A stretch of 64,000 nucleotides of DNA from an uncultured virus (IMG/VR IMGVR_UViG_3300020042_009962) (Duplodnaviria; Heunggongvirae; Uroviricota; Caudoviricetes): the IMG/VR virus record IMGVR_UViG_3300020042_009962; one strand, 5' to 3'. Below, one piece after another: positions 663-28,241 of this stretch. The notes beneath the pieces were generated by a model. The model was given only the letters and a program-made list of their open reading frames with translations. It searched no databases and was not told the origin of the DNA. The translations under genes were made by a program, and so were the position numbers. Numbering within the stretch: position 1 is the stretch's first letter; the number at the start of each line of letters is the position of its first letter.

Positions 663-664
663 TA

Positions 665-11997: not shown

Positions 11998-12034
11998 GTT
12001 GCATACTACGAATGTTGTTTGTATCTTTACGTAT
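11998..12034 (+). promoter_or_regulatory. Bacteroidota-type promoter
   Basis: GTTG-N20-TATCTTTACGTAT. Confidence 0.7.
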
Positions 12035-12054
12035 AATTAATAAACAAAACGGTT

Positions 12055-12462
12055 ATGAGCTTAGAAAAAATTAAATGTTCAAGATGTCCTGGTGAAATGC
12101 CTAAATTAAGATTAGATCAATACGGATATGATTTCTGTGTAAATTGTTCTGATGTTAAACCAAAGGTAGGACGTATTAGAGTAATAGGAGAAGGAGATTA
12201 CACTGTCACAGAAATGGACATACTAGACCAAGACACTGCAAGAAGACTCCAGGAGTTGGAAAATACTTCAAGAGGAGTTAGAAATGTTCCTTTAGAGATC
12301 TTAAACTTTGATGAGGACGAATTAGCAGACGATAGTAGAGCAATCTCAGAAGCTACAGATAAGATATTGGAAGGAGAGTTGGAAGTCTTAGATGATGAAC
12401 AAGACTTAGAAGATCTAGAAGATGTTGAAGATGTAGAACTTGAAGACGAAGACGACGAATAG
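12055..12462 (+). CDS. C4 zinc-finger protein (DksA/TraR-like finger) with acidic tail
   Basis: CSRC-PGEMPKLRL-...-CVNC; D/E-rich C-terminus. Confidence 0.55.
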   Translation: MSLEKIKCSRCPGEMPKLRLDQYGYDFCVNCSDVKPKVGRIRVIGEGDYTVTEMDILDQDTARRLQELENTSRGVRNVPLEILNFDEDELADDSRAISEATDKILEGELEVLDDEQDLEDLEDVEDVELEDEDDE

Positions 12463-13125
12463 ATGCCACCAAGTAAATTTTTATCTAAAGAAGATATTTT
12501 AAGAGCCATGCAGAACACCAAGAGTAATCATGGTGCTGCAAGGTTTCTTAGATGTTCATTGAACCATTACAAAAAGTTTGCAAAAGTTTACATAGATGAG
12601 GCAACAGGACTGTCCCTAAATGACCTACACAAAAATCCTTCAGGCAAAGGTATTCCAAAGTTCCTATCCAATAAAGGAAAGAAAGCTCCACTAAAAGAAT
12701 TAATAGCAGGTACTCTTTCAATAGAGAGTTTCGAACCAGCTAAGATCAAACAGAGATTAGTATTTGAAGGATACCTAAAAGAGGAATGTAGTAGATGTGG
12801 CTTCCATGAAGCACGAGTAGCAGACCAAAAAATTCCATTGATATTACAATTCAAGGATCGAAACAAAAAAAACTATGAGCTAGAAAATATCGAGCTTATG
12901 TGTTACAATTGTTCATACCTATATGCAATCTCTCCAATATCAGAAAAGCAAGTAATCAAGATGGAAGATTATATAGAGAAGCAAGGATCTGAAATAGAAT
13001 GGGAAGTGGATGACTCAATGAAAGAACACTTGCAGTCATTAGGTTTGTGGAAAGAGGAGTTCGATCCTACAGATGGAAACAACTACATCTCAGAAAACTA
13101 CAAACGAAATGAAGAACAGGACTAA
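12463..13125 (+). CDS. HNH-like/zinc-binding protein
   Basis: ECSRCG...IPLIL...NKKNYELENIELMCYNC resembles a degenerate HNH motif. Confidence 0.55.
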   Translation: MPPSKFLSKEDILRAMQNTKSNHGAARFLRCSLNHYKKFAKVYIDEATGLSLNDLHKNPSGKGIPKFLSNKGKKAPLKELIAGTLSIESFEPAKIKQRLVFEGYLKEECSRCGFHEARVADQKIPLILQFKDRNKKNYELENIELMCYNCSYLYAISPISEKQVIKMEDYIEKQGSEIEWEVDDSMKEHLQSLGLWKEEFDPTDGNNYISENYKRNEEQD

Positions 13126-13237
13126 ACCTACAAGAGAAAGAAGAGTTGCCAATCAACTTGTCAAACAATCTGAGCAGAATGAAAAGCTCAGAGAGAAAAC
13201 AATCTCTAATAATTTCTGGAAATTTTTTAAAAAATAG
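13109..13237 (+). CDS. small basic hypothetical protein (42 aa)
   Basis: MKNRTKPTRERRVANQLVKQSEQNEKLREKTISNNFWKFFKK*, below the track cutoff. Confidence 0.45.
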   Translation: MKNRTKPTRERRVANQLVKQSEQNEKLREKTISNNFWKFFKK

Positions 13238-13273
13238 TTGCTAGACTGGATCTTTCTGAGTATCTTTAGGTAT
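13237..13273 (+). promoter_or_regulatory. Bacteroidota-type promoter
   Basis: GTTG-N20-TATCTTTAGGTAT. Confidence 0.75.
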
Positions 13274-13285
13274 ACAAAAAAAGTT

Positions 13286-13615
13286 ATGGCAGAGAAGACA
13301 GGCAATACAGCAAAACTCGTTTATGATTTCAATACAGCAGCAGTATGCGAAGTATGCATCAAAGGTAATTGGTATCGTACAACACCTAGAGAGTTTAGAT
13401 CTTTTGATGGTGAGAGGAGATTGACTGAACCAATCAAACAACCAGGACTAGGGGATGACTTTGCAGACATAGAGTTTCACACATATTCCTATAACGGTCC
13501 AGTATACATCGTACAGTCAAATGTACAAGTAATTAGAATGAATACAAATACAATCGTTACAAATCCCTACATTGAAGTAAATCAAAAATCATTAACAAAT
13601 AGCAATCGTACATGA
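13286..13615 (+). CDS. hypothetical protein
   Basis: ATG 13286 downstream of the promoter; track TTG start lies inside the promoter. Confidence 0.65.
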   Translation: MAEKTGNTAKLVYDFNTAAVCEVCIKGNWYRTTPREFRSFDGERRLTEPIKQPGLGDDFADIEFHTYSYNGPVYIVQSNVQVIRMNTNTIVTNPYIEVNQKSLTNSNRT

Positions 13616-13908
13616 GAAAATTACAAGTAGAATCTCTAGAACAATTAGAACGTATCTTTAGAGAAAAATCAGTCGATATGACTAATAATATCCGAGAAGG
13701 TATTGAAGAGGCTATGTCGAAAAACAAGAAGACAGCTAACCTATTCCAAATAGAGATGGATGGAATAGATACTTCTTTTGAAATCTCTCTCACATCTAAG
13801 GAATGGATAATAGCTCTAGAGAATTGTCTAAAACATTACGGAGAGTGGGAGATGGGGGATGAAGCAATTGATACTTATTTATTAATTAAACAATTAAAAC
13901 AAAAATAG
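13612..13908 (+). CDS. hypothetical protein
   Basis: ORF overlapping upstream stop (ATGA). Confidence 0.6.
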   Translation: MRKLQVESLEQLERIFREKSVDMTNNIREGIEEAMSKNKKTANLFQIEMDGIDTSFEISLTSKEWIIALENCLKHYGEWEMGDEAIDTYLLIKQLKQK

Positions 13909-13910
13909 TT

Positions 13911-14159
13911 ATGGAAAAATTAGTCAGTGTATTCAAATGTGACTCTACAGGAATTACAACAACATATACATATAGAGGCAAGAGTATCGTATCAGGTATT
14001 GAAAAAGCTGAGTTTGATTATCCTAAAGGATACTTAGAGCAGTTTGCTAAGGAACAAAAGAGAGCAGAGAACCTACCTAAGACTAGAAGATTGTACTTTA
14101 ATCCTGCAACAGGGAACGAGGTATCCTATGCTAGAGCAAAAGCTTTAAAAATAATTTAA
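13911..14159 (+). CDS. hypothetical protein
   Basis: ORF, operonic. Confidence 0.6.
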   Translation: MEKLVSVFKCDSTGITTTYTYRGKSIVSGIEKAEFDYPKGYLEQFAKEQKRAENLPKTRRLYFNPATGNEVSYARAKALKII

Positions 14160-14176
14160 AAATAATTGATAAAAAA

Positions 14177-14213
14177 GTTGCAACAATGGAACTTTATCAG
14201 TATCTTTAGGTAT
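14177..14213 (+). promoter_or_regulatory. Bacteroidota-type promoter
   Basis: GTTG-N20-TATCTTTAGGTAT. Confidence 0.75.
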
Positions 14214-14237
14214 ATAAATCAATAAAAACAATTAGTT

Positions 14238-15068
14238 ATGTTAAACACTTACAACACAGGTCTAGATTCTTACCTTTCAAAAGATCAAATCAGAGAGATC
14301 GCACCAGTAGTATTTGCTACGGAACCTACCAACAAGAATGTGAGCGATAAGTATCTTCATGTTAATACTGAAACAGTTATCGATGACTTAGAAAAGTTAG
14401 GATGGCTTCCAGTGAGTGCAGCTCAGAGAAGAACTAAACCAAGAAAGGATGGATCTCCTACTATCAGATCTAAACACATAGTATCATTTCAGAATCCTGA
14501 TCTTATGATTAAAGGTAAGAATGGTGATGATGCTTTCCCTAGAATCATTGTAACAAACTCTCACGATGGATTAAGTTCATTCCAGTTTAGAGTTGGAATC
14601 TACAGATTAGTTTGCTCTAATGGATTAGTAGTTGCTGATGAAGAATTCTCAGCATTCAGTATCAAACATAAAGGATATACTTTTGAGGAATTACAAACAG
14701 TAGTAGCTTCTGCAGTTGCGGATCTTCCAAATAAGGTTGAGGTTCTAAACAAAATGCAAGTTAGAATGCTTACTCCAGCTGAACAAAGACAATTAGCAAT
14801 CGATGCTATGGCTTTGAGAAGTTCAAATCCTGATGCTAAGTTTGATGAAGCTTCAATCGAAGAAATACTAACTGCTACTAGAAAAGAGGATGAAGGAGAC
14901 AGCTTATGGTTAGTATTCAATAGAGTGCAAGAAGCTATTATTAACGGAGGATACTCAGCAGCCTTGAGAGGATCTAAAGTAAGAAAGGTTAAGAAGATCA
15001 AATCATTCGAGAAGGATCTAGAAGTCAATCAGAAGCTTTTTAAATTAGCAACAGCATTTGTTAACTAA
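14238..15068 (+). CDS. DUF932/DUF945-family protein
   Basis: SDKY..V.TE.VI..L...GW, NSHDGLSSFQF..GIYRLVCSNGLV, R.ED...LW.VFNRVQE. Confidence 0.85.
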   Translation: MLNTYNTGLDSYLSKDQIREIAPVVFATEPTNKNVSDKYLHVNTETVIDDLEKLGWLPVSAAQRRTKPRKDGSPTIRSKHIVSFQNPDLMIKGKNGDDAFPRIIVTNSHDGLSSFQFRVGIYRLVCSNGLVVADEEFSAFSIKHKGYTFEELQTVVASAVADLPNKVEVLNKMQVRMLTPAEQRQLAIDAMALRSSNPDAKFDEASIEEILTATRKEDEGDSLWLVFNRVQEAIINGGYSAALRGSKVRKVKKIKSFEKDLEVNQKLFKLATAFVN

Positions 15069-15307
15069 TGGATAGAGAAAGATATCTACAAATGAGAAGG
15101 ACCGGCCAATATGATCTTGGCTGGTTCTATCAATACTTCTTAGAGAATAAGGATAAGAATAGAATGACTCCTCCCTTTGAAGCTTTTCACCAAGCCTTCA
15201 ATATGTACTTCCAAATGAACGGAGGAGTAATATTAGAGACTTTGGACAAGAAAATGGAAGTAACAAAAATAGAGAACGCAGAAGGAAATTTAATTTATAT
15301 AAACTAA
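15068..15307 (+). CDS. hypothetical protein
   Basis: ORF, TAATG coupling. Confidence 0.6.
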   Translation: MDRERYLQMRRTGQYDLGWFYQYFLENKDKNRMTPPFEAFHQAFNMYFQMNGGVILETLDKKMEVTKIENAEGNLIYIN

Positions 15308-15309
15308 AC

Positions 15310-15549
15310 ATGGACGGAAAAGTAAAAACACCAAAAGAATTGATGGCAGACTTGAATGGAAATTATATCCAAGTAATCAAGAAGAACGGAAAGACTCACG
15401 ATAAACTATATAAAGATCCTCAGAGAGCAATCAGAGGAGTAGGAGGAGTAGAGTATGTAAAGTACTTGCGAGAGGTTCTTAAGGAGCAGGTAAATGCCAA
15501 GTACGTAGAAGAAGATTCATTAACAGGAACACCAGAGAACGAATTATAG
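15310..15549 (+). CDS. hypothetical protein
   Basis: ORF, operonic. Confidence 0.55.
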   Translation: MDGKVKTPKELMADLNGNYIQVIKKNGKTHDKLYKDPQRAIRGVGGVEYVKYLREVLKEQVNAKYVEEDSLTGTPENEL

Positions 15550-15550
15550 T

Positions 15551-15751
15551 ATGGAAAAATTAGGAGCACTTTTATTAGCAATAGGAATAGTACTAGTAAC
15601 AGCAGTAGTACTAGCATGGCCAACACAATGGCTTTGGAACAATGCTCTAGTAGGAGCAATAGATGGAGTAAAGGAAATAGGCTTTTGGCAAGCATTAGGA
15701 ATAAACATTTTATGCAATCTTTTATTTAAAGGACATTCAGCAAGTAAATAA
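15551..15751 (+). CDS. small membrane protein
   Basis: Two hydrophobic segments; WLWN...IGFWQALG motif. Confidence 0.65.
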   Translation: MEKLGALLLAIGIVLVTAVVLAWPTQWLWNNALVGAIDGVKEIGFWQALGINILCNLLFKGHSASK

Positions 15752-15756
15752 TTACC

Positions 15757-15799
15757 AAAAGAGTTGCTTCGGTAACTCTTTTTCAGTATCTTTAGGTAT
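15757..15799 (+). promoter_or_regulatory. promoter with embedded TTCG hairpin
   Basis: GTTG(15763)-N20-TATCTTTAGGTAT; AAAAGAGTTGC-TTCG-GTAACTCTTTT hairpin. Confidence 0.75.
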
Positions 15800-15818
15800 A
15801 GAAATTAAAACAAAGGCT

Positions 15819-15917
15819 ATGACAGAAGAACAATTACAATTATTACTTGACGAGGAGGACACTTACACTAATGAGTGGAGAGAAAGTTTAACACAAGAAC
15901 AAATAGATTCAATATGA
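15819..15917 (+). CDS. small acidic protein (32 aa)
   Basis: MTEEQLQLLLDEEDTYTNEWRESLTQEQIDSI*, directly behind promoter. Confidence 0.45.
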   Translation: MTEEQLQLLLDEEDTYTNEWRESLTQEQIDSI

Positions 15918-16024
15918 TACACGCAATAGTAGGAACAATAGCAGGAGGATTAGTCTTCGGAGGATTAGTAGTAGGTTTCATGTTAATTGTTGAGACCGTA
16001 ACAAAAACAAGGCGAGGGCGCTAA
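15914..16024 (+). CDS. small single-TM protein (36 aa)
   Basis: MIHAIVGTIAGGLVFGGLVVGFMLIVETVTKTRRGR*. Confidence 0.45.
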   Translation: MIHAIVGTIAGGLVFGGLVVGFMLIVETVTKTRRGR

Positions 16025-16068
16025 CTCAAGCTGTGACGCGCAAATTTTAACAATCTAACAAACATTAC

Positions 16069-16629
16069 ATGGATAATTCAAACTTTAAACCCAACTTAAC
16101 TCCAAGTCAAATGCTAAAAAAAGGCATCTTTGGAGGATCTTATTTCGGAATACAAAAGCTACAAGGTGATATGTACTATGATGAATTGTTTGAATCCTTT
16201 GTAGATGTCGACAAAAGTTTGTACATGGGAGACAAGTACCAGCCAAAAAGTAATAAGTTTAAAATAAGAAGTGGTAAGGATTACCAATTTTGGAAGGATA
16301 TGAATTGGATGCATGAGGATGATCCGTACGGATGGTTTGAATGGTATTGTAAATACTACATGGGTAGAAGACACTCAGATGATCAAAGACAGATACAAAG
16401 ATGGTTAGACTTTTGCGGACCTAAAGGAAGATGGAGACAAAGGATCTACGGAATGATTGATAGTACAGGTAATTGGGATGTAAGTCCTAGAATTCAACAA
16501 AGCCTTCTTCATTGGGGATATGAGGTCAATGAAAATGATTACTATGCTTGGACGGAACGAAAACAATACTCAGAGGATCAGTGGTGTCATTATGGAGGTC
16601 TTCCTTCACCTAAGGCATACCAATATTAA
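16069..16629 (+). CDS. conserved viral hypothetical protein
   Basis: FKPNLTP.QML..GIFGG.Y...DPYGWFEWYC.YY.GRR..DD.RQI.RW...RQ.LLHW pattern. Confidence 0.7.
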   Translation: MDNSNFKPNLTPSQMLKKGIFGGSYFGIQKLQGDMYYDELFESFVDVDKSLYMGDKYQPKSNKFKIRSGKDYQFWKDMNWMHEDDPYGWFEWYCKYYMGRRHSDDQRQIQRWLDFCGPKGRWRQRIYGMIDSTGNWDVSPRIQQSLLHWGYEVNENDYYAWTERKQYSEDQWCHYGGLPSPKAYQY

Positions 16630-16640
16630 ACCAAACATAT

Positions 16641-16826
16641 ATGAAGATAGTATTGTACAGTAAGAGGTATAAGGGAATGAAACAAACATTCAACTCTAGA
16701 AAAGGAAGTGGAACTACAATTGAGGGAATAGCCGTACAGGAAGTACCGCAACTAAATGTAGTAATTCTCAGAGATAGGGAGAACTTCTCCCATGCAGTAA
16801 GCATCAATTCAATTAAAGAAATATGA
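16641..16826 (+). CDS. hypothetical protein
   Basis: ORF, operonic. Confidence 0.5.
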   Translation: MKIVLYSKRYKGMKQTFNSRKGSGTTIEGIAVQEVPQLNVVILRDRENFSHAVSINSIKEI

Positions 16827-17200
16827 AAATAGCAGTTATAGCACACGATGGTAAGAAAGCAGATATGGTAGCTTTCATAATGAAAAGACTAGAGTTCTTT
16901 AGTAGGGTTGAAATAATTGCTACAGGTACTACAGGAAAGCATATTGAACATGCAGGACTAAAGGTACAGTGTTTGAAGTCAGGACCATTGGGAGGTGATG
17001 CTCAAATTGCTTCTTTGATAGCAGATGGACAGGTTGATGGAGTTATATTCTTTATTGATCCTTTAGATGTTCTACCACACCAGGTAGATGTAAACATGTT
17101 ACTTAGAATTTGTAATGTATATAACATTCCATTAGCAACCAATTACAAGACAGCAATCTATGTTATAAATGGATTAGAAACAAAATTAAATAAGAGATGA
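16823..17200 (+). CDS. mgsA: methylglyoxal synthase
   Basis: IAHDGKK, ATGTTG, SGPLGGDAQI, FFIDPL..PH.VDV..LLR.C.V.NIPLATN. Confidence 0.93.
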   Translation: MKIAVIAHDGKKADMVAFIMKRLEFFSRVEIIATGTTGKHIEHAGLKVQCLKSGPLGGDAQIASLIADGQVDGVIFFIDPLDVLPHQVDVNMLLRICNVYNIPLATNYKTAIYVINGLETKLNKR

Positions 17201-17430
17201 CCGTAAAACAACTAATTGAAAGCCTAAGTAAGGTAGAAGACCAAGACATAAGAGTAATGGTAAGAGGATATGAAAGAGGAGTAAAAGATATAGATAATAA
17301 TACTCCAGCAATCATACACGTAGCGTTAGATGTAAATGAAGAATGGTACTATGGAAGACATGAAAGAGTAGATGATATAGATCCAAGTACTAATAAACAA
17401 TACCAAATAGTAAAGGCAATTATCCTATAG
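17197..17430 (+). CDS. hypothetical phage protein (MTVKQLIE.L type)
   Basis: ORF, ATGA overlap. Confidence 0.6.
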   Translation: MTVKQLIESLSKVEDQDIRVMVRGYERGVKDIDNNTPAIIHVALDVNEEWYYGRHERVDDIDPSTNKQYQIVKAIIL

Positions 17431-17432
17431 GG

Positions 17433-17528
17433 AAAACCACTTGGCTAACCGTTTGGAAAACCGTCTACAAAACCGTTTCGCTAACCGTTTACATAACCGA
17501 TTAGTCAACCGATCCGATAACAGATAAT
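17433..17528. repeat. 12-bp tandem array, 8 units, core AACCG(T/A)
   Basis: aaaaccacttgg ctaaccgtttgg aaaaccgtctac aaaaccgtttcg ctaaccgtttac ataaccgattag tcaaccgatccg ataacagataat. Confidence 0.9.
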
Positions 17529-17774
17529 AACGGAGTAGATACGCGGATAATTGCTGAGAAACATATGTGAATACGTGAGGAGATCTGACAATGGAACGTT
17601 TGTCAAACCGATTGCAAGTATATAAAGTACATAGTACTAGGTAATACATAATACTATATGACATAAGGTAATGCGTATAAAACATAGGAAGATGGGTAAA
17701 ATAAAATTAGTAATTAATTGTCCTGTGTCTTCCTCTCAAAACAAATTTGTATATAGAACCTGTTTTCCTCCCTT

Positions 17775-17923
17775 AGAACCGTTTAAAAACACCTAGAAAA
17801 CCGATTGGCAAACCGATCACAGAACCGATTGGGTAACCGTTTGGCAAACCGACTAGCAAACCGTTTGGGGAACCGATCCGTAAACCGATTTGGCTAACCG
17901 ATTCGCAATAGAAAACCGTTTTG
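17775..17923. repeat. 12-bp tandem array, about 11 units, core AACCG(T/A)
   Basis: aaaaccgattgg caaaccgatcac agaaccgattgg gtaaccgtttgg caaaccgactag caaaccgtttgg ggaaccgatccg taaaccgatttgg ctaaccgattcg plus flanking copies. Confidence 0.9.
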
Positions 17924-17988
17924 GTTACGAATCTGATAATGCACCCCTATAGCAAAACTCAAAAGTATTGCGAATAATGTAAAAAACT

Positions 17989-18022
17989 GTTGCCTCGTAT
18001 ATAAAAAAGGTGTATCTTTAGG
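17989..18022 (+). promoter_or_regulatory. Bacteroidota-type promoter
   Basis: GTTG-N20-TATCTTTAGG. Confidence 0.7.
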
Positions 18023-18038
18023 GACTAAAGACAAACAT

Positions 18039-18254
18039 ATGACACGTACCCAGGATCTAAACACAGTAATAGGAAAAGATTGTTCATGTAATCAGTCTCC
18101 TACCCTTAGGGCTAAATTAATCTCAGTAGGCAAACACAAAAGCCTTCTGGAGGTAACCGCAACTATGTATAGTAGAGCGCAATGGAATAATATCTACGTA
18201 GGGAAAAAGTTTACCCTGGACACCTCTACCGTTCACAACATGTATTTTTTCTAG
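18039..18254 (+). CDS. hypothetical protein
   Basis: ORF behind promoter. Confidence 0.55.
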   Translation: MTRTQDLNTVIGKDCSCNQSPTLRAKLISVGKHKSLLEVTATMYSRAQWNNIYVGKKFTLDTSTVHNMYFF

Positions 18255-18258
18255 CCCT

Positions 18259-18381
18259 ATGAAAACAATTACCGTAACAATTCAAGAGAGGTGGGCTGCT
18301 TCCCAGCACAAAATCCACAAAAGCAAAAAAACCTACGATAGGAAAAATTTACCTAAAGTAAAGCTTTCAGTTAAATCATAG
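18259..18381 (+). CDS. small basic protein (40 aa)
   Basis: MKTITVTIQERWAASQHKIHKSKKTYDRKNLPKVKLSVKS*. Confidence 0.45.
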   Translation: MKTITVTIQERWAASQHKIHKSKKTYDRKNLPKVKLSVKS

Positions 18382-18444
18382 CTTTCAGTTAAAGTGTTGA
18401 TGGAAGTGAAAGTAAAGCTTTAAGTGAAAGTATTGCTTTAAGTG
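18355..18444. repeat. 18-bp tandem array, 5 units
   Basis: aaagtaaagctttcagtt aaatcatagctttcagtt aaagtgttgatggaagtg aaagtaaagctttaagtg aaagtattgctttaagtg. Confidence 0.85.
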
Positions 18445-18525
18445 CTATAGGAGAATGTAAGGCGCTCTCCGGTCTACTCTTCCGGATTGTCAGATCCAGG
18501 CCCCTGTCGCATCTCTGCTTTTTCA

Positions 18526-18562
18526 ATACCTAAAGATACGGTGAAAGATCTTGATATGCAAC
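18526..18562 (-). promoter_or_regulatory. leftward Bacteroidota-type promoter with no ORF downstream
   Basis: Reverse complement reads GTTG-catatcaagatctttcaccg(20 nt)-TATCTTTAGGTAT, a perfect match to the + strand consensus. Confidence 0.8.
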
Positions 18563-18613
18563 TTTTTTTTCATTTATTTTGTTATTTATATTCATTCTAA
18601 ATTACCCCTACCT

Positions 18614-18650
18614 GTTGACCCGTACGTATTATTATAGTATCTTTAGGTAT
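18614..18650 (+). promoter_or_regulatory. Bacteroidota-type promoter (divergent partner of 18526..18562)
   Basis: GTTG-N20-TATCTTTAGGTAT. Confidence 0.75.
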
Positions 18651-18673
18651 TATTAATTAAAACAACAACAAAC

Positions 18674-18832
18674 ATGATTGTAAACGAAAGTATGAGGACA
18701 GTAATCTTAAGTATTATGAAGTCCAAGATCCAAAGTGATTCAGTAAGTCCTAATCAAGTAGCTCAGGTTGCTTGGGATTGTGGAGTGGAATTGACAAGTG
18801 CTCAAATAGTATACATTAGTAATAACTTCTAA
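18674..18832 (+). CDS. hypothetical protein (52 aa)
   Basis: MIVNESMRTVILSIMKSKIQSDSVSPNQVAQVAWDCGVELTSAQIVYISNNF*, behind promoter. Confidence 0.55.
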   Translation: MIVNESMRTVILSIMKSKIQSDSVSPNQVAQVAWDCGVELTSAQIVYISNNF

Positions 18833-18842
18833 AACAAACATC

Positions 18843-19217
18843 ATGATCAGTACAATTAAAGATTTAACAGTAGTAAATTGGATAGGAGATAGAGAAGGTA
18901 TCTTCCAGGCCATAGTAAAAGTACCAGCAGGCTTTATGTCAGCATGTGAATTAGGATCTAAACTACCTTCCCTTAATAGATGGAAGAAAGGAACACTTCA
19001 ATCTATCCAGTTTAAAGCTGAAGGAACTAATCACTGGATGACAGTATTTGCTAAGAAAGGTACAAAGATTATCTTATTAGATCAGAAGATAGCTGAGACA
19101 GTAGAGGTAGGAACAATCAATCAATTGTTCTATAATACAAATCTAATGGATCACAATCAATATAAAGCTGTCAATGCTAAGACTTGGGCAGATAAGGCTT
19201 TTCTATTGAATGAATAA
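18843..19217 (+). CDS. hypothetical protein
   Basis: ORF. Confidence 0.65.
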   Translation: MISTIKDLTVVNWIGDREGIFQAIVKVPAGFMSACELGSKLPSLNRWKKGTLQSIQFKAEGTNHWMTVFAKKGTKIILLDQKIAETVEVGTINQLFYNTNLMDHNQYKAVNAKTWADKAFLLNE

Positions 19218-19301
19218 TTTTTGAAAATAAATGGGGAAAGAGTTGCTAGTTCGATTCTTTCTCCTTATATTTAGGTATCAATAATTAAAACAATAATAGT
19301 T

Positions 19302-19499
19302 ATGCAAGTTACAATTAACATTCCTCAGTCTATCTTAGACATTATTTTAGAAGCAGGTTATGATGAAGACCAAGCTCCTAAGCTTTTTAAAGGTTATATA
19401 GATTCTATTGTTCATCATCCTTATGGCCAATTTCACACTGATTTTGAGAATTGGTTTGATTCAGAAGAAGAAGAAATTATTCAAGAACTATTAAACTAA
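19302..19499 (+). CDS. small acidic protein
   Basis: ORF behind cassette promoter. Confidence 0.65.
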   Translation: MQVTINIPQSILDIILEAGYDEDQAPKLFKGYIDSIVHHPYGQFHTDFENWFDSEEEEIIQELLN

Positions 19500-19504
19500 G
19501 AGAT

Positions 19505-19630
19505 ATGAAAAAAGTAGTACTACCAGGAATTATCTACTATGAAGTAGAATTAAAAGGAGTTTCTTATATGTCTTTTAATCCTCAGGAATTAGTTGTTAGA
19601 ATGGCCCAAGCAAATCTTTCTTTAAATTAA
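19505..19630 (+). CDS. small hypothetical protein (41 aa)
   Basis: MKKVVLPGIIYYEVELKGVSYMSFNPQELVVRMAQANLSLN*. Confidence 0.45.
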   Translation: MKKVVLPGIIYYEVELKGVSYMSFNPQELVVRMAQANLSLN

Positions 19631-19711
19631 TTAAAAAAAGTTGTATAAAAAGTTGCTCGTTTAAATTATAGTTCGTATATTTAGGTATCAATAATTAAAA
19701 CAATATAAACT

Positions 19712-20020
19712 ATGGGTTATTCAACTATGTTAATGGGAAAAGGTTTTGACCAACCAAGAAATTCAGTTAATCAAATTGTTCAGTATTTAATCGAAAATCC
19801 TTTTCAGACTGAAACTGAAATTCAAGAAAATGTTTTTGACTATTTTCGATATGGTTATAGACAAATTGAATCAAATAAAAAATATGCCGACCTTTTAAGA
19901 CGTGGACTTCAAAAAGGTTTGTATAAAAGATTTCTATGGAAAAAGAAAAACGATAGTAGAAATCTATATCGTTATTATGTTCCAACTTCTGTTAAAGAAA
20001 ACTTTTTAAAAAATAACTAG
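19712..20020 (+). CDS. basic protein, possibly winged-helix-like
   Basis: IVQYL.ENP..TETEI...LLRR....GL...wing-like YRYYV end. Confidence 0.6.
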   Translation: MGYSTMLMGKGFDQPRNSVNQIVQYLIENPFQTETEIQENVFDYFRYGYRQIESNKKYADLLRRGLQKGLYKRFLWKKKNDSRNLYRYYVPTSVKENFLKNN

Positions 20021-20087
20021 TAAAATAGTTGCCCCTTCGGGGGCTATTTCTTATCTTTAGATATCAATAATTAAAACAGATAAAATT

Positions 20088-20357
20088 ATGAAAACATTAT
20101 TAGAAAGTGCAAAAGCGTTATTAATTAACGGAGCAAATGAGTTGTATGATATGAGAAAAGACGAATTAGATTTCGATGCTTTATCGTATAGAAATCATTT
20201 TTCGAATCTCGGAGAATTAATATTTCAAATTGATGCTTATGAATCATTCGGAGATATCATTAAAGATATTGAAAATGATAATCTTCAGGAATTGGGATAT
20301 TTTGGAGCAGATGAAGATTTACTTGAAGCATTTTTAAAGCAAGCATTACAAAAATAA
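20088..20357 (+). CDS. small acidic protein
   Basis: ORF behind cassette promoter. Confidence 0.65.
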   Translation: MKTLLESAKALLINGANELYDMRKDELDFDALSYRNHFSNLGELIFQIDAYESFGDIIKDIENDNLQELGYFGADEDLLEAFLKQALQK

Positions 20358-20428
20358 TTGTAAAAAAAGTTGCTCCTTCGGGAGCAATTTCTTATCTTTA
20401 GATATCAATAATTAAAACATATAAAATC

Positions 20429-20722
20429 ATGGCAAAAAAAACTTATCAGGACACTGACGGAACATCATTTCACGGAGTAACAATTCGAGCGACTGTTGAT
20501 CAATTAACGAAAGCTTTTGGAGAACCTTACGATAATAATTCGGGGGATGACAAAGTAAATTTCGAATGGGATATGGAAAATAACGAAGGGGAAGTATTTA
20601 CAATTTACGATTGGAAGGAATATCGAGTATTGAAATCTGATGAAATGATTACATGGCATATCGGGGCGAAAAGTAAATCAGATTCAAACGTTGCTGAAAG
20701 AGAAATATTAAAAGCCCTGTAA
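20429..20722 (+). CDS. conserved phage hypothetical protein
   Basis: GTSFHG.I.AT...L...FGEP...DKVNFEW...FTIYDWK...WHIG pattern. Confidence 0.7.
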   Translation: MAKKTYQDTDGTSFHGVTIRATVDQLTKAFGEPYDNNSGDDKVNFEWDMENNEGEVFTIYDWKEYRVLKSDEMITWHIGAKSKSDSNVAEREILKAL

Positions 20723-20731
20723 AAAGGGCTT
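20712..20731 (+). terminator. hairpin after cassette gene
   Basis: AAGCCCT-gtaaaa-AGGGCTT. Confidence 0.5.
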
Positions 20732-20824
20732 AAAAATAAATTGAAAATAATTGTTAAAATAGTTGCTAGTTTAAATTAATGTTCGTATATTTAGGTATCA
20801 TTAATAATTAAAACATATAACATT

Positions 20825-21612
20825 ATGACAAGATTAGGTTTATTAGAGGATCAAAAAGCAATCCTTACAGCTAAGAAAGATTTATTATCAGAGAAAAGAG
20901 GAGACGTCTATGTAAGAGAGCAAAAAGCTTTAGGAGAGGCTTTAGCAGGCTTTTACGGAGTATTTCCAGAGGATGTAGAAGTTGTAGTAACTAGAGGTTC
21001 TGTTTACTTTAAAATGGATCATCCGAATGTAAATTACAAGAAAGAATTATTCAATCTTTATTTAAGAGAGGATTATGATTTCGAAGAAGGTAAAGATAAA
21101 GATCTTATACAGGGATTGATTTATCTTACTACACTACTTCTACAAGAGGAATTGATCTTTGGGAGTTAAAAAGATTACAAATGCTAGGAAAGATTGCTGA
21201 AGTGGTTTATGAGAAGCATGATGAAATAGTTGATGCTGCAAATGCTGCTGTACTTTCTTTCAAAGAAGAATATGCTGAGGTGTTTAAGGAAATGCAAGAT
21301 GTAGGGAGTGAGATTAGAGGAGTTGAGAATTTGATTACTTACTTAGAGAAGGAAAAGATTGAAAAGGATTTGAAAGGAGAGGGAGTTGATTTTGGAAGAG
21401 GAAAAAATATTCAATTGAAGTTTAATTACTCTCCGAATGTAGTAAGTATTAAACTAATTGATCTTTCTAAATCAGGAAAGAAAGGTACTGCGGTCTTTAA
21501 ATGGAACCATGCAGGAAATGCTTCTCAAGAAGAAAATGTAAACGTTAGTTCTATAATTAATCAAGTTTATGGACTACGAGAAAATATTATTCAGCCTACT
21601 TTAGCTGAATAA
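20825..21612 (+). pseudogene. single coiled-coil-rich gene broken by a 1-nt frameshift near 21100 (track ORFs 20825..21169 and 21181..21612)
   Basis: The -1 frame from 21100 reads RSYTGIDLSYYTTSTRGIDLWELKRLQ straight into MLGKIAE of the second ORF. Confidence 0.7.
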
Positions 21613-21632
21613 TTTTTAATTATTGATCGAAG

Positions 21633-21658
21633 AAAGGGCTCCTATTAGGGGCCTTTTT
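21633..21658 (+). terminator. intrinsic terminator
   Basis: AAGGGCTCCT-att-AGGGGCCTT followed by T run. Confidence 0.7.
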
Positions 21659-21739
21659 GGGTTAAAATAGTTTGTGAAATAGTTGCCTCACTAAACTAAA
21701 GTTCATATATTTAGGTATCAATAATTAAAAAGATATATT

Positions 21740-21922
21740 ATGAAAGAAGTTAGAGAGTACTTTGATTTGAATTATGGTTATGTTGATCTAGGAGGAATAG
21801 ATGATCATGTATTAGAGAGTTTTTTATCTCGATCTTATTTGATTGACTTAAGTTTTGTAAGAAAGATGGATTGTTTATATGACTATATTCTTTCTCAGGA
21901 TTTATGTAATGTTCAAGAGTAA
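21740..21922 (+). CDS. small hypothetical protein
   Basis: ORF behind cassette promoter. Confidence 0.6.
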   Translation: MKEVREYFDLNYGYVDLGGIDDHVLESFLSRSYLIDLSFVRKMDCLYDYILSQDLCNVQE

Positions 21923-21948
21923 TTAATATTAATTTAAAAAATAAGACT

Positions 21949-22161
21949 ATGACACAGTTAATGCAATCACATCCGGGAATGGTAGAAGAAGTAATCTCTA
22001 TGTTAAGACATATGGAGATAGATGGAGAAACAATGCAACATATAATACAGAGTGTTGGATTAGAAGATCAAATGACTAGGCAATTAATGTTTCTAGCTGA
22101 TAGAGGCTATGTAGAAGACCTTTGGGAAGAGATAGTAGAGTTGGAAAAAAGTCATGATTAA
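21949..22161 (+). CDS. small acidic protein
   Basis: ORF. Confidence 0.6.
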   Translation: MTQLMQSHPGMVEEVISMLRHMEIDGETMQHIIQSVGLEDQMTRQLMFLADRGYVEDLWEEIVELEKSHD

Positions 22162-22222
22162 AGTTGCTAGTTACAAAGTTAGTTCATATATTTAGGTATC
22201 AATAATTAAAACATATAAAATC

Positions 22223-22411
22223 ATGGCAAAAGCATTTAAAGAATTAAAGTTAATTAAAGAAAGATTCATTGAGGAGATTGATGAATTAATTGCTCAATAC
22301 AAAGAAGACAAAACATCTATTGATGATGTTGACTTTGATGAAGAGTTAGGACAATTACTTTCGGACATTATTGATGATGTTAAAGAGAGAGATTGGGAAA
22401 GATCTTTTTAA
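22223..22411 (+). CDS. small acidic protein
   Basis: ORF behind cassette promoter. Confidence 0.65.
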   Translation: MAKAFKELKLIKERFIEEIDELIAQYKEDKTSIDDVDFDEELGQLLSDIIDDVKERDWERSF

Positions 22412-22490
22412 AATAAAGTTGCTAGTTACAATTAAAGTTCTTATATTTAGGTATCAAAATTAATCAATCAATAATTAAAAACAAATCATT

Positions 22491-22886
22491 ATGAAAAAAG
22501 AATTAGTATTACAGTCAGTTCAGAATTCAGTATCTTCAATCTTTTCAAAAGAAGATGTTATTAATCTTATCAATTCAGTAGAAGCAGGATCAAGTAGAAA
22601 GATTACTGTAGATGATATTGAAAGAGCAATCGATCAAACTATTAGTTGGATTGAAGATAATGAAAGAGATGTATTAGATTTAGATTCTGCTGAGTTTGAA
22701 ATCTCTTACAACAATCAATTGGAATGTACAAATGTTCCAATCAATGTTGATAACATTAGAGAAGCTCTAGAGAATAACTTTATGGACTTCGGAGAAGCAG
22801 AAGAAGATGAGGTTGTAGGTTCAGAGTTTGAAGATGGTGTATCAAGTTCAGAATTTGTTCCAGTAGATGAAGAAATAGATGATTAA
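22491..22886 (+). CDS. highly acidic protein
   Basis: ORF behind cassette promoter; D/E-rich throughout. Confidence 0.7.
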   Translation: MKKELVLQSVQNSVSSIFSKEDVINLINSVEAGSSRKITVDDIERAIDQTISWIEDNERDVLDLDSAEFEISYNNQLECTNVPINVDNIREALENNFMDFGEAEEDEVVGSEFEDGVSSSEFVPVDEEIDD

Positions 22887-22953
22887 ATAAAGTTGCCCCT
22901 TCGGGGGCTTCTTCTTATCTTTAGGTATCATTAATAATTAAAACTATATCATC

Positions 22954-23184
22954 ATGAAAGAATTTTTAGAAAGAGAGTTGTTTAGTATGAACAGAGGATT
23001 AGTAGCAACGCCTAATACAAGAGAGGACTTAGAAGCCTTTGCTAAAGCTAATGGAGGTTCAATGGATATTATTCTAATGCAGATGGCTATTAACTTTGGC
23101 TATAAGATAGCTCTAGAGAATGTTCAAGAAGAACTAGAGAAGACTTCTACTAAAACTAAAGTAAGAGGGACTATCGAGATCTAA
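22954..23184 (+). CDS. hypothetical protein
   Basis: ORF behind cassette promoter. Confidence 0.65.
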   Translation: MKEFLERELFSMNRGLVATPNTREDLEAFAKANGGSMDIILMQMAINFGYKIALENVQEELEKTSTKTKVRGTIEI

Positions 23185-23185
23185 T

Positions 23186-23425
23186 ATGGCAGATCAATAT
23201 GTAAAGGGTATGTGGAAGTTAAGAGCTCCAACAAAGCTTCCTAAGTCTACTTACCCTATGGTGGGGATGGTCTATGAAGGAGTTGATAAGTTCTTTGGTA
23301 AGAGAACGATAGGAGTCTTAGTAGAGATGTTTGATCAGAACGATGAAGCTATACTAAAGACCATAGCAAATAAATTAGTCTCAGTAGATAAAACTTCTTT
23401 AAAAATAGTTGTAGGTAAAGAATAA
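23186..23425 (+). CDS. hypothetical protein
   Basis: ORF, operonic. Confidence 0.6.
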   Translation: MADQYVKGMWKLRAPTKLPKSTYPMVGMVYEGVDKFFGKRTIGVLVEMFDQNDEAILKTIANKLVSVDKTSLKIVVGKE

Positions 23426-23467
23426 AGTTCTTATATTTAGGTATCAATAATTAAAAAGATAAACACT

Positions 23468-23740
23468 ATGACAAAAGAACAATTCTTAAACGGAACAATT
23501 TTTACAATCGGAGGACCAACTTACAAAGGAGCTTGTACTTATTCTTACAACGAGAGTGCTGGATGTATGATGAGACAAACTAGATCTTCTTTAGATGGAA
23601 GAATAGTAATGAGTGAGTACGAATGTAACTTACCTAAGATTACTAGAACAGGGTTTGAGGGTTTTGCTTTCATAATGAAAAAGAAAGTAGTAGTCAAGTA
23701 TAAGTTTTCGGACTTGGTAGAATTTAAAGAGGAGGCTTAG
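23468..23740 (+). CDS. hypothetical protein
   Basis: ORF behind cassette promoter. Confidence 0.65.
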   Translation: MTKEQFLNGTIFTIGGPTYKGACTYSYNESAGCMMRQTRSSLDGRIVMSEYECNLPKITRTGFEGFAFIMKKKVVVKYKFSDLVEFKEEA

Positions 23741-23754
23741 GCCTCTTTTTTTTT
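23732..23754 (+). terminator. intrinsic terminator closing the cassette array
   Basis: GAGGC-TTAG-GCCTC followed by 9 T. Confidence 0.8.
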
Positions 23755-23827
23755 CCTGTAGGTCAAGGTGACGTCACGGTGAGGTCAAGTTGAGAGAAGT
23801 TTGATAGTTAAGTTCCCTCAACGGGTT

Positions 23828-24090
23828 GGCACTCGGGTATCCCGAGCCACATAGAGTTGCATATTTCTGATGAAAATTGAGGTATGGGGGTATATATTTA
23901 TATATACTATGTAGCTTTAAGAGAGATGTTGTTATGGACCCAACCAATCCAATCCTAGTCCTTCCAAAGAAGAATTACTGTCCAAGGTGTCCTCCCTCTC
24001 AAGTTTAATCTATATAGCTGCTAAACCCTAGCACGGTTACCACCTATACCCCTAACCTACCTCTTATGTTGTATTCCTAAAGAATTGTTT
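23828..24090 (-). ncRNA. candidate structured non-coding RNA
   Basis: Nested complementary segments 23879..24063; G-U wobbles mostly favour the minus strand; minus-strand promoter at 24098..24129; no ORF. Confidence 0.45.
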
Positions 24091-24097
24091 CTTATAT

Positions 24098-24129
24098 TTA
24101 ATATAGAACCTTTTGGTCAATTTTCCAAC
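24098..24129 (-). promoter_or_regulatory. leftward promoter candidate
   Basis: Reverse complement GTTG-gaaaattgaccaaaaggttc(20 nt)-TATATTAA. Confidence 0.55.
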
Positions 24130-24189
24130 TAACCCCAGTTTTTTTTCCGGAAAATTTTTCGTTATAGGTTAAGTATATATTTATATAAG

Positions 24190-24603
24190 ATGAAAAAGCT
24201 TGATAGTAATGATCTTTTCAATATATTTTCGGTAGGAGATGAAGAGATTTTTAAAGAACATAAAATAGAGAATGCGGTAGATAACACCTTCGTACTTTTT
24301 GGCATGGCCATTCGTGGTGTAGAAAACTATTTTATCATAGATAAGATGTATTCCAGTAGATACCAAGAACATTATGTCTCCGTAAGAGATTCTATAAAAC
24401 TAAAGTACTTTAACGGCCTTGTAAATTACCTTGAGAGGGTTAAGGATATACAGTCAGATACGGTAGAATACCTTGAAGATGAATTCGGACCCCAGGCCAT
24501 TCATTATGCATTAGAAGAATTATTAGAGTTCTATAAGGAATTGGAGATGTACGAGAAATGTGCAATTATTTTTAAGTTTTACCAGCTTTTCTTTAAGAAA
24601 TAG
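24190..24603 (+). CDS. hypothetical protein
   Basis: ORF behind TATTTAT; C-terminal LEFY.ELEMYEKCA.I motif. Confidence 0.7.
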   Translation: MKKLDSNDLFNIFSVGDEEIFKEHKIENAVDNTFVLFGMAIRGVENYFIIDKMYSSRYQEHYVSVRDSIKLKYFNGLVNYLERVKDIQSDTVEYLEDEFGPQAIHYALEELLEFYKELEMYEKCAIIFKFYQLFFKK

Positions 24604-24639
24604 TTGCCAGATACAATCTTTATTCTTATATTTAGGTAT
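24603..24639 (+). promoter_or_regulatory. Bacteroidota-type promoter
   Basis: GTTG-N20-TATATTTAGGTAT. Confidence 0.75.
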
Positions 24640-24663
24640 ATAAATCAATTAAAAATAAAAGTT

Positions 24664-24870
24664 ATGTTAATAAGTATTTTAAATACCGTTTTTTCGGTAC
24701 CGTATTTAGTAATAGGTGTGCTTATAGCAGCCTTGCTTGATATAGCAATTCACTACACAAAAGCCACTACCCGGTTTACTTTACTTGAGATATGGGGATG
24801 TGTGATGTGTTGGCCTGCAGTTCTTTTAATACTTGCTGCAGCATTTGTAGCAGGAAAAACAAATCAATAA
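24664..24870 (+). CDS. small two-TM membrane protein
   Basis: ATG 24664 after promoter; YLVIG...CWP hydrophobic pattern. Confidence 0.6.
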   Translation: MLISILNTVFSVPYLVIGVLIAALLDIAIHYTKATTRFTLLEIWGCVMCWPAVLLILAAAFVAGKTNQ

Positions 24871-24873
24871 GTT

Positions 24874-25506
24874 ATGTATAGAGATAAAATTAGTATGGCA
24901 GAGGCTATGTCCCTTGAATTAATAGGAGAAATTACTATTGTTGATTCTTCACCAGAGTCTGCCTTGGCCTACCCCAAGGTAGGGAAGAAGTGGAAAGAAG
25001 CATTTATAACACTACAATCCAAACACAGACATATATCTCCAGGTAAACTCCTTGATTTTCTTTCGGCACGGTATCTTATAGAGGTATCTGAAGGACAGGT
25101 AGATGAGGATACAAATACTTATTCCTGGAGATATTTCCACGGTATAGAGAATAAGAAGATAAAGGAGAGGTCTGCCGATGATATCGAGTATGTTTATGTT
25201 CTTGTGAATCCCGCTTATACCTCTCTGGTTAAGATAGGAATGACCATTCACGACGTTCCTAGGAGAGTTACGGCGATAAACGCTACAGCCACGGTTGAGG
25301 AATGGGTTCCAAAATTTGCTTTACCTCTCAAGAAAGGTTCTGCCTTGAAAGTGGAGAAGGCCGTTCACAAGCATTTTTCTTCCGTTAGGATTACTTCCGA
25401 TAGAGGAGGTTCTAGAGAGTTTTTTAAAGTTACCCCTTTTGAGGCTTTTGATAAGATAAGAGAGGTAGGAGCATTGTTTACTGTAGGGGAATGCATAATT
25501 TATTAG
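24874..25506 (+). CDS. GIY-YIG superfamily protein (T5orf172-like)
   Basis: YVYVLVNP....VKIGMT....RR...N...E..VH..F...R......REFF. Confidence 0.85.
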   Translation: MYRDKISMAEAMSLELIGEITIVDSSPESALAYPKVGKKWKEAFITLQSKHRHISPGKLLDFLSARYLIEVSEGQVDEDTNTYSWRYFHGIENKKIKERSADDIEYVYVLVNPAYTSLVKIGMTIHDVPRRVTAINATATVEEWVPKFALPLKKGSALKVEKAVHKHFSSVRITSDRGGSREFFKVTPFEAFDKIREVGALFTVGECIIY

Positions 25507-25558
25507 GGATATATAAAAATAATTGCGCGGCGATTCTTCGAAAATAACTTATAAAACA

Positions 25559-25593
25559 GTTGCTACCTACCCTTTTTCTTCCTATATTTAGGT
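25559..25593 (+). promoter_or_regulatory. Bacteroidota-type promoter
   Basis: GTTG-N20-TATATTTAGGT. Confidence 0.7.
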
Positions 25594-25612
25594 GTAATCA
25601 AAAAGATATAAT

Positions 25613-27268: not shown

Positions 27269-27562
27269 ATGGAAATCTTATTAATAGTATCAGTTGTTCT
27301 TATTTTAGTTTTAAGTTATGTGATTTACAACTTAAACCGGAAAGTAATTAAGCAAGAAGATATCCTAGAATACCAAGTAGGTTACCTTAGAAATGTTTCG
27401 TATCTTATTAGTGAATCAAAAATTTATGTTGAACAATTAGATGAGAAAGGTACATTTAGGTCAGACGACGAAGTTGGAGTCTTCTTTAATTTTATGAAAG
27501 AAATACAAGAAACGATAAATGCCTACCGCCTCCCAGAAGACTATGGCAAAACCACCAAATAA
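27269..27562 (+). CDS. N-terminally anchored membrane protein
   Basis: Hydrophobic N-terminus; FRSDDEVGVFF. Confidence 0.65.
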   Translation: MEILLIVSVVLILVLSYVIYNLNRKVIKQEDILEYQVGYLRNVSYLISESKIYVEQLDEKGTFRSDDEVGVFFNFMKEIQETINAYRLPEDYGKTTK

Positions 27563-28241
27563 AGACAATTATTACTTTACACAAGAGACAGAGGACGCAA
27601 TCGTAAGATATAACGCATCCTCTGATCCTGTTTACAGAGATACAGTATTTAAGAAAGAAATATACCACCCGCTATATAAGTTAGCAGAGAATATTATACA
27701 TACCTTTAAGTTCTACTACCTAGATGTAGATAGTATAGAAGATTTAAAATTGGATGTAGTTAGTATGCTTGTAGAGGAGAAGCTTCATAGATTTGACGCT
27801 ACCAATGGAGCAAAAGCTTTTTCTTACTTTCAAACAATAGTAAAGAGATGGCTTATAAATTACAATAACCGTAACTATAAAAAACTAAAACAGGTAGGTT
27901 CTTTTGAAGAAATGGAAGACTCTTACGAAGTAGAGGGATCTCCAGACTCAGAAAGAAGAGTAACTTTAGCAGTGATAGTAAATATTTTTATTGAAAATAG
28001 TTACGATAGTATAGAAGAGCTTTTCCCTAAAGAACAAGATCAAAGAGTAGCAGATGCTATACTTACCCTATTTAGAACTCGTCATGATTTAGAAATTTTT
28101 AGAAAGAAAGCTCTGTACATCTACATAAGGGAGATGACCGACTGCGAAACTCCTACACTTACCAAGGTGATTTCAAAACTAAAAGAAGAATTCTATAAAA
28201 TATATAAATCTTACCAAGATGCAGGTTTCTCCATTCAATAA
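27543..28241 (+). CDS. phage RNA polymerase sigma factor (T4 gp55-like, late transcription)
   Basis: NYYFT, KLAENII..F, FDAT.GAKAFSYFQTIVKRWLI resembles the gp55 FD..K...FAYFT.I motif. Confidence 0.7.
   Translation: MAKPPNKDNYYFTQETEDAIVRYNASSDPVYRDTVFKKEIYHPLYKLAENIIHTFKFYYLDVDSIEDLKLDVVSMLVEEKLHRFDATNGAKAFSYFQTIVKRWLINYNNRNYKKLKQVGSFEEMEDSYEVEGSPDSERRVTLAVIVNIFIENSYDSIEELFPKEQDQRVADAILTLFRTRHDLEIFRKKALYIYIREMTDCETPTLTKVISKLKEEFYKIYKSYQDAGFSIQ

Follow-up and report, generated by a model that had tools for sequence, protein, structure and literature searches.

A previously unannotated structured RNA of Immutovirus-like phages, seen in metatranscriptomes and probably circular

The phage and the locus

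The DNA analysed here (the window) is a stretch of 64,000 nucleotides that forms the initial 64 kb of a virus contig 78 kb long and belongs to a phage related to Immutovirus. Between 23400 and 24650 it is 85% identical to four Flavobacterium phage immuto records, which are the sole full-length matches among 50,697 phage records, and the group includes a cultured member with a known host, phage immuto 2-6A of Flavobacterium sp. LMO8. The element studied here is located between the last gene of a small-gene cluster and a gene at 24190 coding for a protein of 137 amino acids (aa). Small genes or gene pairs on the plus strand of 11999-25600 are headed by about 19 matches to a single promoter pattern of early type, in which 20-21 nt separate a -33 element from a -7-like box; this is typical of host take-over regions. 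A second, late-type box occurs in the 78-kb contig 16 times on the plus strand, ten of them 4-19 nt ahead of a start codon, and three times on the minus strand; the labels early and late derive from gene context. The main features are the following:

23726..23751, plus strand: intrinsic terminator at the end of the early gene cluster
23761..23815, plus strand: five 11-bp phased repeats (TRF period 11), outside the RNA
23875..24066, putative minus strand: mature structured RNA of 191-192 nt, seen as head-to-tail contigs
24067..24093, minus strand: 27-nt leader missing from the RNA contigs, holding an opposite plus-strand promoter (24068-24100)
24098..24129, minus strand: promoter of early type serving the RNA, with a -33 element and, after a 20-nt spacer, a -7 box at 24105-24098
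24190..24603, plus strand: gene for the 137-aa all-helical protein used as synteny marker, with a late-type box at 24178
27519..28241, plus strand: gene for a probable sigma-70-type factor of the phage, presumably its late sigma

The 137-aa protein is conserved and found in phages only (120 representatives), with a weak UVR-domain lead (score 0.83) and no match at E up to 0.001 in a fold search. The late-type box lies 4 nt ahead of its start codon, which suggests a leaderless mRNA. The product of the 27519 gene is probably a phage sigma factor, on weak evidence: its Atlas neighbour (0.98) belongs to a cluster with Sigma70_r2 in 21% of the members, and four weak NCBIfam sigma matches (E 0.002-0.009) are far under their cut-offs; Pfam, PHROG and PDB searches gave no match. 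Many IMG/VR contigs (e.g., L208, L210, L227, L231, L234, L235, L239 and L256) stop less than about 1.5 kb from the RNA on its early-gene side. These stops are at varied positions and may mark a hypervariable region or a genome end.

Homologues, fold and covariation

Homologues were collected through the neighbouring protein (18 and 17 loci) and with three DNA patterns (25, 75 and 60 matches). This produced 53 distinct complete versions of 98-310 nt, defined by two anchor motifs; matches lacking either anchor or cut by contig ends were excluded, and the invariance of the anchors within this set is thus partly a product of selection. The observed range of the RNA is the Immutovirus-like group. 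With model R1, none of 61 Flavobacterium genomes gave a match at E up to 0.01 (a search without positive control), the best of the 80 bacterial or archaeal pattern matches scored (of 85) reached 19.5 bits with its pairing broken, and the best score among distant phages sharing the sigma-like gene, 22.7 bits, was not recovered when the locus was searched again. Two kinds of candidates were rejected, namely an exact 18-mer in a GC-rich contig from which the remainder of the element is missing (L052) and four loci that have the box alone in common and contain no closing stem like P1 (L150, L175, L185 and L192). These four represent a different phage group with an analogous early/late boundary which, after position 700, carries many 7-nt repeats and a long hairpin.

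The element had been predicted to be transcribed from a minus-strand promoter of its own, and the match at 24129-24098 is indeed kept in 51 of the 53 versions. Among the four minus-strand matches of early type in the 78-kb contig, it is the only intergenic one. Placing the -7 box at -12 to -5, as described in PMC9723704, predicts a transcription start at about 24093. The overlapping plus-strand promoter-like match starting at 24068, which had been raised as a caveat, is also present, its pattern occurring in 29/53 versions. The leader is missing in nine of the 53, where the predicted start coincides with the closing stem. In L047, L123, L147, L163 and L169 it is longer, and a common quasi-palindromic motif of about 25 nt replaces the plus-strand promoter.

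All nested pairings originally proposed for the element are found in the sequence and in the minimum free energy (MFE) fold of the minus strand, which contains the following parts (all on the minus strand):

24063-24058 / 23884-23879: closing stem P1a
24052-24045 / 23894-23887: closing stem P1b
23879..24063: P1 overall (P1a and P1b)
24044-24035: junction hairpin P2, weak, 3 bp
24033-24019: junction hairpin P3, 5 bp, with a variable loop
23906..24018: variable P4-P5 arm, whose 8x8 internal loop (23992-23985 / 23934-23927) is conserved
24018-24010 / 23914-23906: helix with one A-C mismatch
24002-23993 / 23926-23917: helix of the MFE fold
23984-23980 / 23939-23935: helix of the MFE fold
23895..23905: single-stranded junction strand, complement of a plus-strand late-type box (23895-23902)

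The element is not the simple rod of the original prediction: the core shared by the versions is a four-way junction formed by P1, P2, P3 and the variable arm P4, and the 9-11 nt that separate P4 from P1 are unpaired. This junction strand is the unpaired stretch that had been recognized as complementary to a putative late motif. One of the two proposed side hairpins corresponds to P3, whereas the other (23974-23959) is an apical hairpin of the variable arm that is deleted in several relatives (L008, L037). A further hairpin proposed downstream (23846-23832) has to be dropped, since among the 49 versions whose flank is long enough the window alone has it intact, and it lies outside the RNA contigs. 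The claim that the region contains no open reading frame does not hold literally, as frames of 43 and 57 aa with TTG starts overlap the element, and in phage immuto 2-6A RefSeq places a hypothetical CDS, gp127, across the RNA in antisense orientation (NC_055915.1 74265-74420; L019:6954-7109). However, relatives differ by indels of 1 and 2 nt, which argues that these short frames, gp127 included, are not coding; gp127 is probably a false gene call.

Folding energy does not by itself establish an RNA, because in the window it only marginally exceeds that of shuffled sequence on either strand (minus strand, z -2.03, with 6/200 shuffles as good; plus strand, z -1.93, 7/200) and does not favour one strand. 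Over the 53 versions the mean z-scores are -2.81 (minus) and -2.30 (plus), with the minus strand lower in 31/53 (20 shuffles each). The z-score was discarded as proof or strand marker because it is too weak. What raises the element above chance is its covariation, together with the RNA-seq contigs described below. In an alignment of 26 versions picked from the 53 for similar length, 93.6% of 1134 cells are paired, as against 33-53% in slid controls. Covariation in related phages, one of the checks suggested for the prediction, consists of changes on both sides in 16 of 45 pairs (55 cells), values that average 8.3 and 13.8 in shuffles and that none of 500 shuffles equalled; relatedness inflates covariation scores, and these pair counts are the robust measures. 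With RNAalifold on a first MAFFT alignment, most of the arm disappeared because it was misaligned.

The individual helices differ in how they vary. P1a consists of different letters in divergent versions and yet its stem is rebuilt, with 5-11 pairs in the MFE fold in 53/53. The columns of P1b are paired in 52-53 of the 53, and its column 4 is G-C in 38 and A-U in 14 versions (about two changes on the flank tree). The last pair of P3 is A-U in 33 versions, U-A in 17, C-G in two and unpaired in one, and the stem letters of P3 are wholly different in L164 and L182; its change count on the flank tree (11) was discarded because recombination or a poor tree is likely. Changes in P2 are G-U wobbles only. 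In the arm, which spans 23-233 nt, helices 7 and 8 show both-side changes in 5/6 and 5/5 pairs, respectively. Both internal-loop motifs are present in 42/53 versions, and the module is doubled in the long versions L119, L133 and L139. In contrast, the minimal 98-nt version (L107 / L177) is made of P1, P2, P3 and the single strand, without the internal loop and with at most a short arm, and is thereby a naturally occurring core construct. The junction strand has an unpaired probability above 0.7 in 48/53 versions and is directly abutted by P1b, which is paired in 53/53; its letters are invariant in 28/28 sequences not selected on them, and a one-letter variant occurs in 6/53. Among the one-sided changes in the anchored helices, G-U predominates when the minus strand is read (50 variant cells, as against 9 A-C cells), and this bias and the conserved promoter are the grounds for assigning the RNA to the minus strand.

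Transcripts and their ends

Parts of the stretch, mostly in small shares, are contained in 20 metatranscriptome runs, of which four from four studies were examined as assembled contigs, a type of evidence that shows neither strand nor reads. A discrete transcript, as predicted, appears in three of the four. In the freshwater runs X2, X4 and X9 (three studies), the element alone forms one record of 221-222 nt with a terminal overlap of 30 nt, which corresponds to a loop of 191-192 nt. The joints are 24066>23877 (with two additional letters), 24065>23875 and 24063>23874 (with two additional letters), thus differing by 1-2 nt and sharing 0-1 letters. The extra letters of the joint 24063>23874 match an allele found in L021 and L034, and one joint has two letters absent from known alleles. 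The three loop contigs are three different alleles with a mean depth of 11-18, which is not a measure of expression rank, and with no listed loose ends. These runs hold no contig over 23791-23871 or 24115-24681 and some on early genes; in run X3, linear contigs extend across the whole region and no loop is listed. The contig 5' ends at 24063-24066 and the 3' end at about 23875 coincide with the closing stem, and the joints cap this stem with a loop of 6-7 nt and skip the 27-nt leader.

That these sequences reflect no functional RNA, and that the spacer is simply promoter-dense DNA with inverted repeats acting as such and with incidental transcription, is a reading that the data largely refute and that we regard as very improbable. 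It would account for the marginal folding z-scores on both strands of the window and for the three overlapping promoter-like boxes, and RNA libraries can contain DNA. It does not explain the compensatory and G-U-biased changes or the match between contig ends and closing stem; moreover, no genomic version contains tandem copies of the element, so there is no DNA source for a head-to-tail joint. Covariation, promoter conservation and stand-alone contigs with matching ends thus bear out the original view of an unannotated phage noncoding RNA, and a discrete RNA with these ends can be assumed with high confidence.

Whether the ends are covalently joined is a separate matter, for which the balance tips slightly towards a true circle. 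Head-to-tail repeats are the usual signature by which assemblies reveal circular RNA (bioRxiv 10.1101/2022.07.19.500677), and a close parallel is offered by DucS and the circular SRP RNA of Bacillus altitudinis, noncoding RNAs some 200 nt long that possess a terminal stem and slightly variable permuted junctions, and whose ligase is described as unknown (PMC10504365). The phage RNA shares the features of DucS-type RNAs that sequence data can show, with a permuted junction in 3/4 runs and the terminal stem P1a in 53/53 versions, and differs in that DucS and the circular SRP RNA are chromosomal and were validated by Northern analysis with RNase R, according to the same report (PMC10504365), whereas the phage RNA is known from assembled contigs. 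A linear RNA, whatever its function, is nevertheless quite conceivable if reverse transcriptase jumped between the adjacent ends of the closing stem. Such a jump would be favoured by RNA ends lying side by side and fits junctions that vary by 1-2 nt and are seen in contigs only, and many permuted-read candidates fail validation, with confirmation reported in two Bacillus species and for 0/8 candidates in E. coli and 0/5 in B. subtilis (PMC10504365). No RNA ligase gene belongs to the core of these phages either: an Rnl2-type ligase (PF09414) is encoded in two of five genomes (G001:C1:102307-102900 and G003:C1:41866-42456), while searches of immuto 2-6A, G002 and the partial G000 gave none, RtcB was found in 0/5, and T4 Rnl1 in 0/5, its control being likewise silent. 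Against a linear form stand the full closure of contigs without listed loose ends at depth 11-18 in three independent studies and three alleles, and the mere 0-1 letters shared at the joints; variable 5' junctions are also reported for DucS, a validated circle (PMC10504365).

Neighbouring DNA element, known RNAs and candidate functions

Next to the RNA, and overlapping its last 30 nt, lies a single-copy DNA element on the plus strand (23761-23905) composed of the phased repeats, two short spaced repeats and the AT-rich box. G000 and immuto 2-6A each hold one cluster of the phased repeats, and the element suggests a replication origin or a packaging (pac) site. Of 67 loci examined (L201-L267), 35 carry the neighbouring 137-aa gene; 47 were scored with model R1, including all 35. 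Strong matches were obtained in 31/35 syntenic loci (58-237 bits; two cut by contig ends), and the RNA is absent from the other four. In three of these its place is taken by an ORF of about 72 aa on the minus strand (L250:3320-3535(-), L251 and L254:3990-4208(-)), and L261 has two short ORFs (626-1046, minus strand) of 50 aa and 88 aa, the latter a probable membrane protein, behind an early-type promoter. The 71-72-aa protein, with a beta-sheet and two helices, corresponds to a domain found in PHROGs 17428 and 24656 and gave no Pfam match and no fold match at E up to 0.001; a KTSC-like appearance is unsupported. The four RNA-less loci all retain the AT-rich box region (three with the exact box, one with a single change), the sequence after the box and the phased repeats, whose 11-bp spacing is maintained across relatives with or without the RNA; the G-run that pairs in P1b is found only in versions with the RNA.

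The conservation of the box region in RNA-less relatives means that the letters of the junction strand are constrained as DNA and provide no evidence for a role in RNA. That this strand is left unpaired (48/53), with P1b ending right there, may be such evidence. The RNA itself, lacking in 4/35 relatives, is dispensable or replaceable. A role tied to the adjacent element, in which transcription into a replication or packaging site matters, the fold or processing of the RNA controls an R-loop or primer and the circle is a by-product, appears improbable. The RNA does overlap the AT-rich box of an element kept in 35/35 syntenic loci, and the minus-strand transcription unit is aimed at this element even where the RNA is lacking. 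However, a closed circle offers no 3' end for priming, the DNA element persists in relatives without the RNA, GC skew does not switch here, and a long co-varying arm would be superfluous.

No Rfam match reaches its gathering score in the window, and none is credible at E up to 10 in 23700-24250; the best four fall far under their gathering scores, and the family is absent from Rfam 15. ARAGORN and Rfam revealed no tRNA, tmRNA, SRP RNA or RNase P RNA, and Rfam no self-cleaving ribozyme, in window or region. Viroid-like circular RNAs that are covalently closed were likewise found by head-to-tail repeats in RNA assemblies and are largely paired (bioRxiv 10.1101/2022.07.19.500677). The phage RNA differs from them in having a DNA gene with its own promoter, imprecise junctions and no known ribozyme. 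Viroid-like RNAs have no DNA phase, whereas this RNA is encoded once in phage DNA behind a promoter; on present evidence it is not a replicon. The element has some resemblance to a T-box antiterminator, whose tRNA-end-binding bulge consists of four invariant bases and has a fixed length; here the four bases change in L182, the following spacer varies in length and letters (12 forms) and Rfam gave no T-box match. Rolling translation of a circle was also rejected, the longest open stretch being 33 codons. As regards antisense targets, no 13-nt complement was found in G000 or immuto apart from late-box sites.

The likeness to 6S RNA that had been proposed on the basis of size and a bulged hairpin stands only in part. 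Like 6S RNA, described as an RNA of about 200 nt with a closing stem formed by its 5' and 3' ends and helices flanking an unpaired AU-rich centre (PMC8876501), the phage RNA is about 200 nt long and has an unpaired centre between closing stem and apical arm, one 98-nt version being short-armed. It matches neither the 6S nor the 6S-Flavo covariance model, although the latter (RF01685) does find the host genes in 2/2 genomes, and host 6S-Flavo RNA is unlike it, with about 108 nt, two long unpaired bubble strands and other letters. Polarity differs as well. 6S RNA is reported to mimic an open promoter with the template in the 5' strand of the bubble and the apical arm upstream (PMC8876501); in the phage RNA the 5' side forms the hairpins P2 and P3, the 3' side is unpaired, and the promoter register fits only in reverse. 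Its gene, moreover, resides in a phage and its ends are seemingly joined. By model and bubble polarity the RNA is thus outside the 6S families; it may still work like 6S RNA.

Action as a 6S-like decoy of RNA polymerase is, by analogy, our lead reading, held tentatively. It leads because the register of the junction fits an open promoter with the template strand single-stranded. The RNA would be transcribed early on the minus strand from about 24093, its leader and trailer would be removed and the adjacent ends ligated into a circle, by which the closing stem would become a capped upstream arm; it would then present a pre-opened promoter, and bind and hold RNA polymerase during infection. If the plus-strand box 23893-23900 is read as -12 to -5, the closing stem would be the upstream duplex, with P1b ending at -12/-11 of the Bacteroidota -7 box, the single strand would correspond to -10 to +1 of the template, the strand opposite would start with the TAnnT part of the box followed by the two hairpins, and the variable arm (P4) would be the downstream duplex, the overall layout being that of a circularly permuted 6S RNA. 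The opposite-strand letters fit the TAnnT part in 53/53 versions, partly by selection. The likelier target would be the host sigma-A holoenzyme and not the phage sigma, since a T4-type late sigma reads the non-template strand, as described for region 2 of T4 gp55 (PMC7892883), whereas what the RNA leaves exposed is the late box's template strand. Its role would be that of an accessory modulator of host take-over, not of an essential switch. The early-to-late switch originally suggested through the late box is weakened, as the box region is kept without the RNA, its template strand is the one exposed and 4/35 relatives lack the RNA.

Several observations bear on such a decoy. The size of about 200 nt and the helix-flanked bubble, as in 6S RNA, would support it, as would the phage's own probable sigma factor and second promoter class, and truncated 6S-1 RNA with short arms is reported to work still in vitro (PMC8876501). 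The decoy reading is weakened by the DNA-level constraint on the AT-rich box, kept without the RNA in 4/35 relatives, and by the dispensability of the RNA in these same loci. By analogy, two bubble hairpins and an upstream arm of 14 bp, unlike canonical 6S RNA, would also speak against it, a second bubble hairpin being reported to hamper 6S-1 release (PMC8876501). Taking everything together, the best explanation is, provisionally, an RNA of about 191 nt that would be trimmed and end-joined and would bind RNA polymerase as an open-promoter mimic. The more specific proposition of a covalently closed, circularly permuted and independently evolved 6S analogue by which a lytic dsDNA phage redirects transcription in infection is speculative, and we consider it unlikely.

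The RNA could instead be a stable decoy for another host protein (e.g., a defence sensor, a nuclease or an RNA-binding regulator) held through the four-way junction and the repeated internal loop, which is possible though doubtful. This would suit an accessory cargo that is swapped for small ORFs in 4/35 relatives and sits at the edge of an early small-gene cluster with promoters of its own, as well as an internal loop that is conserved and duplicated in long versions. End-joined RNA is protected against exonucleases, and joining would shield this RNA accordingly. On the other hand, a search of Rfam up to E 10 matched neither CRISPR repeats nor antitoxin families, the 98-nt version lacks the internal loop, and this reading gives no account of the constant register that P1b keeps relative to the promoter box.

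What the analysis adds is a phage RNA family that had not been annotated before, is seen as RNA in metatranscriptomes and is probably circular; for its function a polymerase decoy is the best single guess. A search of openly accessible papers retrieved no description of a phage-encoded circular RNA or phage 6S-like RNA, and to our knowledge validated circular regulatory RNAs are rare in bacteria. If the RNA binds polymerase, it would represent an RNA-based phage route to transcription take-over; if it binds a defence protein, it would be an addition to the few known RNA anti-defence factors. The prohead RNA of phi29 is likewise a structured RNA encoded by a phage, comparable in size and built around a multi-way junction. 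The present RNA differs in that it has no Rfam match and that its phage, by the annotation of immuto 2-6A, has a T4-like portal, capsid and large terminase; nothing points to a packaging function for it.
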